The notes beneath the pieces were generated by a model. That model did no database searches and was not told the DNA's origin. It was given only the letters and a program-made list of their open reading frames with translations. DNA of 63,785 nucleotides, the filler included, from Schmidtea nova (lineage: Eukaryota), in NCBI GenBank assembly GCA_044892505.1. It is 6 parts of 3 records of this genome, joined end to end, with 100 filler letters (N's around TTAATTAATTAA, not from the genome) between each part and the next. Parts side by side here need not be neighbours in the genome. Positions count along the whole stretch, not along the records: positions 19,060 to 33,898 come from CM097882.1; 5 more parts are not named here. The stretch is one strand, 5' to 3'. Both the position numbers and the translations under genes were made by a program. Position 1 is the first letter of the stretch; each line of letters starts with the position of its first letter. Of this stretch, positions 25,518-26,000 are shown piece by piece.

Positions 25518-26000
25518 ATGATAAGTAATATTAATTATATGGGCAAGTGTTTAGTTCCAAACATGATATTTCCTGTTGGGAAACCCCAGCAAGTTATAGA
25601 TAGGAGTGGAAAGTACCCTATTTTATTTTTCAGATCGGGAAAATGTCGTGTAATGGGTTGTAAACAACCGTTAAAACAAGATGATTTGAAATATAAAATT
25701 TCAGATTTAAAAATTCAATCGATCACTATAACATTGGATATGGGTAAATCCATAAATTTATACGAATTGCAAAATAAAACAGAGTGCTGGTACGAACCCG
25801 AAATATTTCCAGCTTTAAGATTAATAAATTATAACCCTATTTGTATTAATATTTTTTCAAGTGGAAAAGTTGTAATATTAGGAATTAAAACATTGGATTA
25901 TTTTAATCAAGTAAATGAAATTAAAAATTATATTAATTCATTAATTAATAATGAATTAATTGATGAAAAATATCTCGATTTATTATTTAATTTTGTTTAA
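25518..26000 (+). CDS. Divergent TATA-binding-protein-fold protein, 160 aa
   Basis: Two TBP-like repeats: ISNINY..ILFFRSGKCRVMGCK and LKIQSITITLDMGKSINLYEL..YEPEIFPAL..INIFSSGKVVILGIK. Confidence 0.8.
   Translation: MISNINYMGKCLVPNMIFPVGKPQQVIDRSGKYPILFFRSGKCRVMGCKQPLKQDDLKYKISDLKIQSITITLDMGKSINLYELQNKTECWYEPEIFPALRLINYNPICINIFSSGKVVILGIKTLDYFNQVNEIKNYINSLINNELIDEKYLDLLFNFV

Follow-up and report, generated by a model that had tools for sequence, protein, structure and literature searches.

A shrunken TATA-binding protein of Polintons and the box YATAAACR as a candidate switch for particle genes

The analysed stretch of Schmidtea nova DNA (63,785 nt, here called the window) contains, on its part at positions 19060-33898, a small gene resembling the TATA-binding protein (TBP) within a block of Polinton genes. 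The parts of the window are separated by repeated spacers of the form 44N-12nt-44N, read as joins between contigs. The locus raises the question of what a TBP does for such an element, and it bears on whether animal Polintons are working viruses and on how they would time their capsid genes without an own RNA polymerase or a helper giant virus. We consider it probable that a Polinton-specific shrunken TBP reads the box YATAAACR and recruits host TFIIB and RNA polymerase II (Pol II) to switch particle genes on late. This is supported by the fold, the family, the residue pattern, the box with its placement, and the host-type promoters of TBP genes in relatives, while the binding and expression steps are predictions.

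The sequence-only reading of the window had described a 160-aa ORF homologous to TBP, and all four motifs quoted for it were found (Table 1). The homology was confirmed by the Pfam family TBP PF00352 with an E-value of 5.6e-17 and 61.8 bits (cut-off 22.9), the match covering residues 64-130, i.e., the C-lobe only. In a phmmer search, 35 solved TBP sequences matched the ORF, the best with 2.7e-12. The AlphaFold2 model of this protein, called mini-TBP in the following, has a pLDDT of 91.9 and was matched to TBP by Foldseek with an E-value of 5e-9. Comparison with VIA-align resulted in a Z of 12.9 and an rmsd of 2.6 Å for 144 aligned residues of both lobes, with predicted model residues 1-144 corresponding to human TBP 164-337. 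The best row other than TBP were rolling-circle initiators (Z 6.8), and TBP clusters were the sole matches in the Atlas. According to the model, mini-TBP is a two-lobe saddle fold. Its N-lobe consists of four strands with no helix of at least four residues before residue 81, and the last 15 residues are of low confidence in the model and missing from the closest relatives. Most full-length homologues begin with M-x-x-N-I-N-Y, which supports Met1 as the start; a later start at Met8 was rejected.

Table 1. Positions of the genes, boxes and structural features at the TBP locus of the window.
Feature	Position	Strand	Remarks
Polinton mini-TBP, 160 aa	25518-26000	+	N-lobe without helices H1/H2, C-lobe complete
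A32-like packaging ATPase, 207 aa	24835-25458	-	Pox_A32 1.4e-6; 63-75% identity to eight relatives
Lysine-rich ORF, 64 aa	24619-24813	-	Behind box at 24842-24849
pX-like virion core protein, 109 aa	24268-24597	-	Adeno_PX 2e-4, under the curated cut-off; relatives
rve integrase with chromodomain	23120-24205	-	Split by 42-nt GT..AG segment
Penton-like (minor capsid) gene, 5' part	22707-23114	-	Position and similarity to relatives; no Pfam match
Fold-back palindrome	19060-26403	.	Arms 19060-22717 and 22746-26403, 3 mismatches
Element-end-like AGAGTAGAGTAG	27246-27257	-	1 match vs 0.1 expected
Adenovirus-type protease, without about the first nine codons	27259-27558	+	Abuts likely element end
Exonuclease-like gene	27591-27992	+	In-frame stop
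Protein-primed type B DNA polymerase (PolB)	29641-33618	+	In-frame stop at 33037-33039
Box TATAAACA	25492-25499	-	Starts 41 nt before ATPase ATG
Box in last ATPase codons (YKQ)	24842-24849	-	Ahead of lysine-rich ORF
Box inside pX	24347-24354	-	Ahead of small MG...CC ORF and integrase
Box in integrase chromodomain	23187-23194	-	Ahead of penton-like gene
Box	27554-27561	+	Ahead of exonuclease-like gene

With cellular TBPs (PF00352, eukaryotic and archaeal) the Polinton TBP shares the saddle fold over 144 residues, N69, F116, F190 and F207, as well as the EPE loop and the SGK turns. It differs from them in that mini-TBP lacks the N-lobe helices H1/H2, has Pro instead of F99 and a polar DNA face, and in that the Polinton TBP shows 28-30% identity to them and lies on its own long branch. 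Mini-TBP is a TBP-superfamily protein, yet no canonical TBP.

Residue numbers, which we take to be those of yeast TBP, were mapped through the cellular TBP P0156 and counted in 89 relatives from a word-free search. An alignment of 159 rows, the loci of which were partly picked by these motifs, gives the same residue picture; 19 of 190 aligned rows were removed as they did not span both lobes. Replacements were found for F99 (Pro, 84 of 89), V122 (Arg, 88), T124 (Met, 89), N159 (Ser/Thr, 89), V161 (Thr/Ser, 87), L205 (Asn, 89) and V71 (Asn, 65), and N69 (84), F116 (88), F190 (88) and F207 (89) are retained. Three of the four kinking Phe are present in mini-TBP. As had been read from the sequence, the second repeat has both (F97 and F113) and the first a single one (F38), with Pro23 at the other site as in the 84 relatives. 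The Glu pair of the C-lobe, which binds TFIIB (PMC7221094, in part), corresponds to E93 and E95 of mini-TBP and is present in 78 (E186) and 87 (E188) of the 89 relatives; the first Glu varies in a longer subfamily (43 of 52). The H2 segment has a length of 32-35 residues in 12 canonical rows, 19 in mini-TBP and 13-38 in the family. A long member (locus L049) has both N-lobe helices predicted and shares the DNA-face changes. Since the main long lineage branches first, the rewiring of the DNA face likely preceded the loss of the N-lobe helices.

By word search 26 relatives of the TBP were found (41-72% identity), and the full HMMER search resulted in 55 clusters at 50% identity with E < 1e-30. 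In total, 59 of 64 metagenome loci were counted as family, whereas L060-L064 were omitted as weak, divergent matches; these five are AT-rich loci outside the family with a TBP-like gene whose N-lobe is seemingly shortened or split. A Polinton core gene is present in 31 of the 59 family loci, in 19 of 25 loci of at least 3 kb and in 12 of 14 of at least 4.5 kb, which bears out the proposed link to Polintons rather than to a host paralogue. Two loci were retrieved by the ATPase alone with enough flank, and both carry the TBP. At L016 the TBP occurs together with pPolB, an rve integrase, an A32-like ATPase, a protease and capsid genes, and at L049 with the same set minus the protease match; the capsid labels at both are based on position and similarity only, with no Pfam match. 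In a tree of 77 rows, 48 family rows are separated from 14 eukaryotic and 3 archaeal TBPs by a branch of length 0.83 with a support of 100/99. The tree contains few animal rows and no TRF2 rows, P0295 was removed, and the bootstrap had not settled. Relatives were searched for in a viral-contig collection with the TBP, ATPase and hexon queries and in a phage collection with the hexon query, without a match.

The head-to-head arrangement of TBP and ATPase had been suggested as a feature to be sought in other Polintons. In the window it holds, with the TBP ATG 60 positions from the ATPase ATG at 25458 (-) as described before. It is not a conserved trait, and was rejected as such, since the ATPase is encoded on the TBP strand in 17 of 22 loci with an ATPase match; in the 5 loci with the ATPase on the opposite strand it is in no case directly adjacent to the TBP. 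In relatives the TBP either precedes the ATPase or follows the protease and exonuclease-like genes.

Several further genes were observed at the family loci. Accessory genes near the TBP encode a dual-specificity phosphatase (L003:4008-4319), a RING finger (L032:1710-2171), an LRR protein (L023:1918-3330) and, at L049, KilA-N and a PLA2-like domain (7052-7912 and 8996-9397). L016 contains a ubiquitin-conjugating-like ORF (222-719) and two tandem penton-like genes (5616-7687) with a box ahead of each. The Polinton contigs L065, L066 and L067 are binned inside bacterial MAGs, likely a contamination.

In the window, the TBP gene is followed leftward by the ATPase, the lysine-rich ORF, pX, the integrase and the penton-like gene (Table 1). 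The gap in the integrase is a 42-nt AT-rich GT..AG segment (23796-23755, -) and likely an intron; short GT..AG segments in the element are consistent with nuclear Pol II transcription. The penton-like gene is truncated at the centre of the fold-back, which comprises 3,658 nt and begins at the first base of the contig. An identical second TBP copy (19463-19945, -), overlooked in the sequence-only reading, lies inside the fold-back, and two real TBP genes were rejected because the second copy arises from this fold-back at the contig end. One soil-metagenome contig (n=1) continues into other sequence at the fold-back point; the fold-back is therefore likely a chimera or a private rearrangement of this copy. 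Its joint was not among the joints listed for contigs compared with the window, a comparison in which one organism shows thousands of variant pieces and depth does not equal copy number. A TBP piece of about 98% identity is present in a soil metagenome, and the TBP stretch had no coverage in run X7. One contig of that run diverges at window position 25460, right after the ATPase start, and nevertheless retains the core of the box, similarly spaced, on the ATPase strand.

Polinton/Maverick elements have terminal inverted repeats and a 6-bp target duplication. The sequence AGAGTAGAGTAG resembles what we take to be the Polinton end motif and likely represents the outer end of the TBP-bearing element, the opposite end being absent from the contig. 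Also missed before, it parts the TBP gene block from the protease and PolB on the right. The protease abuts this sequence and lacks its start, so that the TBP-bearing element was likely inserted into the protease of a second Polinton, and the PolB and the TBP probably belong to different element copies. The Polinton gene set of the window is probably divided between two nested copies, and a hexon gene is absent. The neighbouring exonuclease-like gene is named after its motif.

The promoter box was analysed in 40 non-redundant loci out of the 54 whose TBP ORF is complete, with 44 regions upstream of ATPase, pX, penton-like, C15, hexon and protease genes. In an unbiased count ATAAAC is the top 6-mer, found in 40 of 44 upstream regions compared to 9.3% of 4,402 background regions. 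It precedes 15 of 15 ATPase genes (14 at -31 to -49), 5 of 5 hexon, 6 of 7 penton-like, 8 of 10 pX-type, 3 of 3 C15 and 3 of 4 protease genes, and was also found ahead of 5 of 7 integrase and 5 of 8 exonuclease-like genes. The full box YATAAACR occurs in 40 of 44 regions in sense and in none of the 44 in antisense orientation. At L065, one of the exceptions, ATAAAC is located at -37, but with A at position 1. L067, another exception, has no box and TATAAAAA at -34; it is a rearranged ATPase fragment on a 3-kb contig without TBP. A poly(A) signal reading of the box was rejected, AATAAA not being enriched (10 sense, 9 antisense). The loci counted are not independent, being relatives of one another.

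The box is kept at the DNA level inside coding sequence. Within the last 45 codons of upstream genes, 21 of 27 Ile-Asn pairs are spelled ATAAAC, compared to 6 of 51 elsewhere (p 8e-9 in 42 loci, a p-value that ignores the relatedness among loci), and for the [YH]K-type word the counts are 19 of 26 versus 5 of 19. In the window a box precedes five genes or regions, i.e., the ATPase, the lysine-rich ORF, the integrase region, the penton-like and the exonuclease-like gene. The box TATAAACA ends 18 nt upstream of the TBP ATG, which lies on the opposite strand. No box was found ahead of either PolB of the window or within 120 nt upstream of its pX.

The promoters of the TBP genes are of a different type. 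YATAAACR was found ahead of 0 of 37 TBP genes, while a canonical TATA is present in 22 of 37 (background 7.7%) and a TCAYW initiator in 30 of 37 (background 17%), with a TATA-to-initiator spacing of 29-31 nt in 13 of 18. Upstream of the TBP gene of the window, a textbook TATA with initiator was not found. The TBP of Polinton L066 (10649-11200) is of the canonical type, with four Phe and with F99, T124 and N159 retained; a dUTPase is present there. YATAAACR is absent from both strands of the 13.4 kb of L066, where only about 1 is expected by chance, and the gene blocks of four family elements contain 6-11 boxes each (shuffle means 0.9-1.7). This control is a single element, so that the box and the TBP may simply be two characters shared by the same clade. 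TBP may have entered Polintons repeatedly, or an older type may have been retained in them.

From these data a cascade can be proposed that would lead from host TBP to viral TBP and from there, with the box, host TFIIB and Pol II, to the particle genes. Host TBP would read the canonical TATA and initiator of the TBP gene, so that viral TBP would be made early. The rewired concave face (F99P, V71N, V122R, T124M, N159S/T, V161T/S, L205N) would then tolerate C at position 7 of the box as well as a pyrimidine (C or T) at position 1; host TBP would use such boxes poorly. The intact EPE loop of the C-lobe would dock host TFIIB, which is the suggested partner because no viral TFIIB or polymerase was found; a Pfam match for TFIIB was absent from sets of 37 and 85 neighbouring ORFs at loci that are not proven complete elements. 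The N-lobe H2 carries a basic patch for TFIIA, TAF1, Brf1 and BTAF1/Mot1 (PMC7221094, in part), and its loss would remove this patch, so that viral TBP would escape eviction and TFIID control. As a speculation, viral TBP bound to the ATPase box 18 nt from the TBP start could damp transcription of its own gene. The 'late' status of the boxed genes is derived from the type of gene. The suggestion that host Pol II is redirected to AT-rich late promoters is supported as an idea, and its target is refined to the defined box YATAAACR.

Compared with TATAWAWR, the box deviates at positions 7 and 1; in the protein, the changes are concentrated in the N-lobe, plus L205N. The N-lobe Phe pair of TBP serves the 7-8 step, and the L205 contact lies near box position 1. 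The 8-bp box is kinked by TBP at steps 1-2 and 7-8 with two Phe each (PMC10005294, in part). A yeast TATA element loses its activity when position 7 is C (PMC4457894, in part), and C at this position forces Hoogsteen pairing on TBP, by which a Leu is avoided (PMC4402545, in part). In host TBP this Leu clashes with C7; mini-TBP has retained it, and 86 of 89 relatives have an aliphatic residue at the site, so that no single residue explains the new specificity and the structural account of it is incomplete.

Other explanations of the TBP and the box were weighed. Host factors might read the box, be it a forkhead protein or TBP or TRF of the host working tolerantly, with viral TBP acting otherwise. 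The consensus site of forkhead proteins is RYAAAYA, which ATAAACA fits and which occurs in 37 of 44 upstream regions, but the usual strong form GTAAACR occurs in only 1 of 44, and a forkhead reading of the box was rejected on this count. In favour of host TBP, it could be crystallised on a C(-25) variant (title of 1qn3), and the canonical-TBP control comprises one element; the box is, however, strictly one-stranded (40 versus 0) and at TATA distance, and C7 abolishes the activity of the yeast element (PMC4457894, in part), which makes a host reader of the box unlikely. A main role as a decoy, sequestering host TFIIB or occupying host TATA boxes and thereby damping host transcription, would agree with the retained TFIIB-binding Glu and with the lost regulator surfaces, owing to which the protein would be hard to evict. 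A decoy would not require the DNA face to acquire polar residues that are invariant (R 88/89, M 89/89, N 89/89) and leaves the box unexplained, and so this role, which can coexist with that at promoters, appears quite unlikely as the main one.

Binding to AT-rich terminal or origin DNA for replication or packaging was considered because the TBP of the window lies beside the ATPase and about 1.2 kb from the likely element end, and rolling-circle initiators share the fold weakly (Z 6.8). It is improbable given the large gap to the Z of 12.9 for TBP, the EPE loop retained as in TBP and the inconstant adjacency to the ATPase among loci. Finally, the gene might be a host TBP paralogue, captured or in decay, that does nothing for the element, as its copy in the window lies in a rearranged region of nested elements where genes nearby contain stops. 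The same replacements are, however, common to 159 family rows, the stem is long and separate (length 0.83, support 100/99), the family comprises 55 clusters, and 19 of 25 loci of at least 3 kb have Polinton neighbours; this explanation is largely refuted and very improbable. The preferred reading thus remains that of a viral TBP acting on its own box. In its most far-reaching form, to which we lean only slightly, it would be a one-gene early-to-late switch in animal Polintons, in which the smallest natural two-lobe TBP, without the regulator helices, reads YATAAACR and uses host TFIIB.

Among known systems the reading is closest to the vTBP of herpesviruses (KSHV ORF24, EBV BcRF1), where a viral TBP-like factor acts on a variant late box (TATT) and host Pol II with canonical TATA serves the early genes (PMC7498053, in part). 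The layout is similar in that the variant box precedes 40 of 44 particle genes and 0 of 37 TBP genes. ORF24 is large and multidomain, itself contacts the Pol II CTD and depends on five further viral factors in a six-protein vTA complex (PMC7498053, in part), whereas the Polinton TBP has 160 aa, plain sequence homology to TBP, the TFIIB Glu pair kept and no partner gene found. In the model of mini-TBP the TBP core begins at residue 1 with no N-terminal Pol II CTD-binding domain. The herpes box deviates at position 4 and the Polinton box at positions 1 and 7. By analogy, the Polinton TBP would work like the vTBP-TATT system without being a member of it.

The TBPs of large dsDNA viruses (BFVD matches) also have two lobes with the regulator signature of the N-lobe lost, but their TFIIB-binding Glu is about 40% conserved, compared to 78/89 and 87/89 for the Polinton pair, and almost all of these viruses have an own TFIIB (PMC7221094, in part), of which none was found among the 37 and 85 ORFs near the Polinton TBPs. 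In mini-TBP, the N-lobe helices are deleted outright. The Polinton pattern differs from the one published for large DNA viruses. TRF2 keeps full lobes. Like the Polinton TBP, TRF2/TBPL1 is a TBP relative with altered intercalating Phe and changed promoter choice; unlike it, TRF2/TBPL1 is a host paralogue with no TATA binding (PMC10005294 and PMC7221094, in part).

Polintons or Mavericks are not mentioned in the main text of PMC7221094. For MELD viruses with adintovirus-like PolB, a TBP is named in a figure legend only, which sits in a section on non-animal datasets (Starrett et al., 2021; PMC8502044; bioRxiv 10.1101/697771; in part). That work has a TBP-like gene in a Polinton-type genome, its text, as far as covered here, giving no family, residue analysis, box or function, and one part of its supplement contained no TBP match. 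A published account of this TBP family, its residues or its box was not found in the open-access literature.

A dedicated promoter factor with its own box is a candidate mechanism for the timing of Polinton capsid genes, and the box could help to recognise late genes in elements that lack annotation. Mini-TBP is also a natural experiment on TBP, with the DNA face changed, one kinking Phe and both N-lobe helices gone and the TFIIB contact kept. If the reading is true, Polintons would have a self-contained late programme for which a helper virus is unnecessary, and a natural orthogonal TBP-box pair would exist, with the N-lobe eroded stepwise within the family. A preference for YATAAACR would then be expected among TATAAACA, CATAAACA, TATAAAAG and scrambled DNA.

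Furthermore, some minor observations were made in the window. A Cys-rich gene after the TBP (26047 onward, +) and a multi-exon gene (28530-28812, +) contain short AT-rich GT..AG segments, likely introns, and the integrase is one continuous ORF in each of L016, L032, L041 and L049. A small Met-Gly ORF with a Cys-Cys motif (about 24275-24200, -) overlaps the integrase start, as in several elements including L032 (3410-3661), and judging from its sequence may encode a lipid-modified virion protein. A second, uninterrupted PolB ORF (57082-61311, +) with about 70% DNA identity to the first is located on another contig. The stomatin gene and the retroelements described next suggest an AT-rich animal host. 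A stomatin gene (169-1161; 7e-99 to a solved stomatin) and a Sec1-family host gene (37547-39214) each appear as a single long ORF without introns, and a Ty3/gypsy element that has direct repeats of 127 nt and disrupted reading frames (9489-14818) as well as a non-LTR retroelement (4417-8720) were identified.
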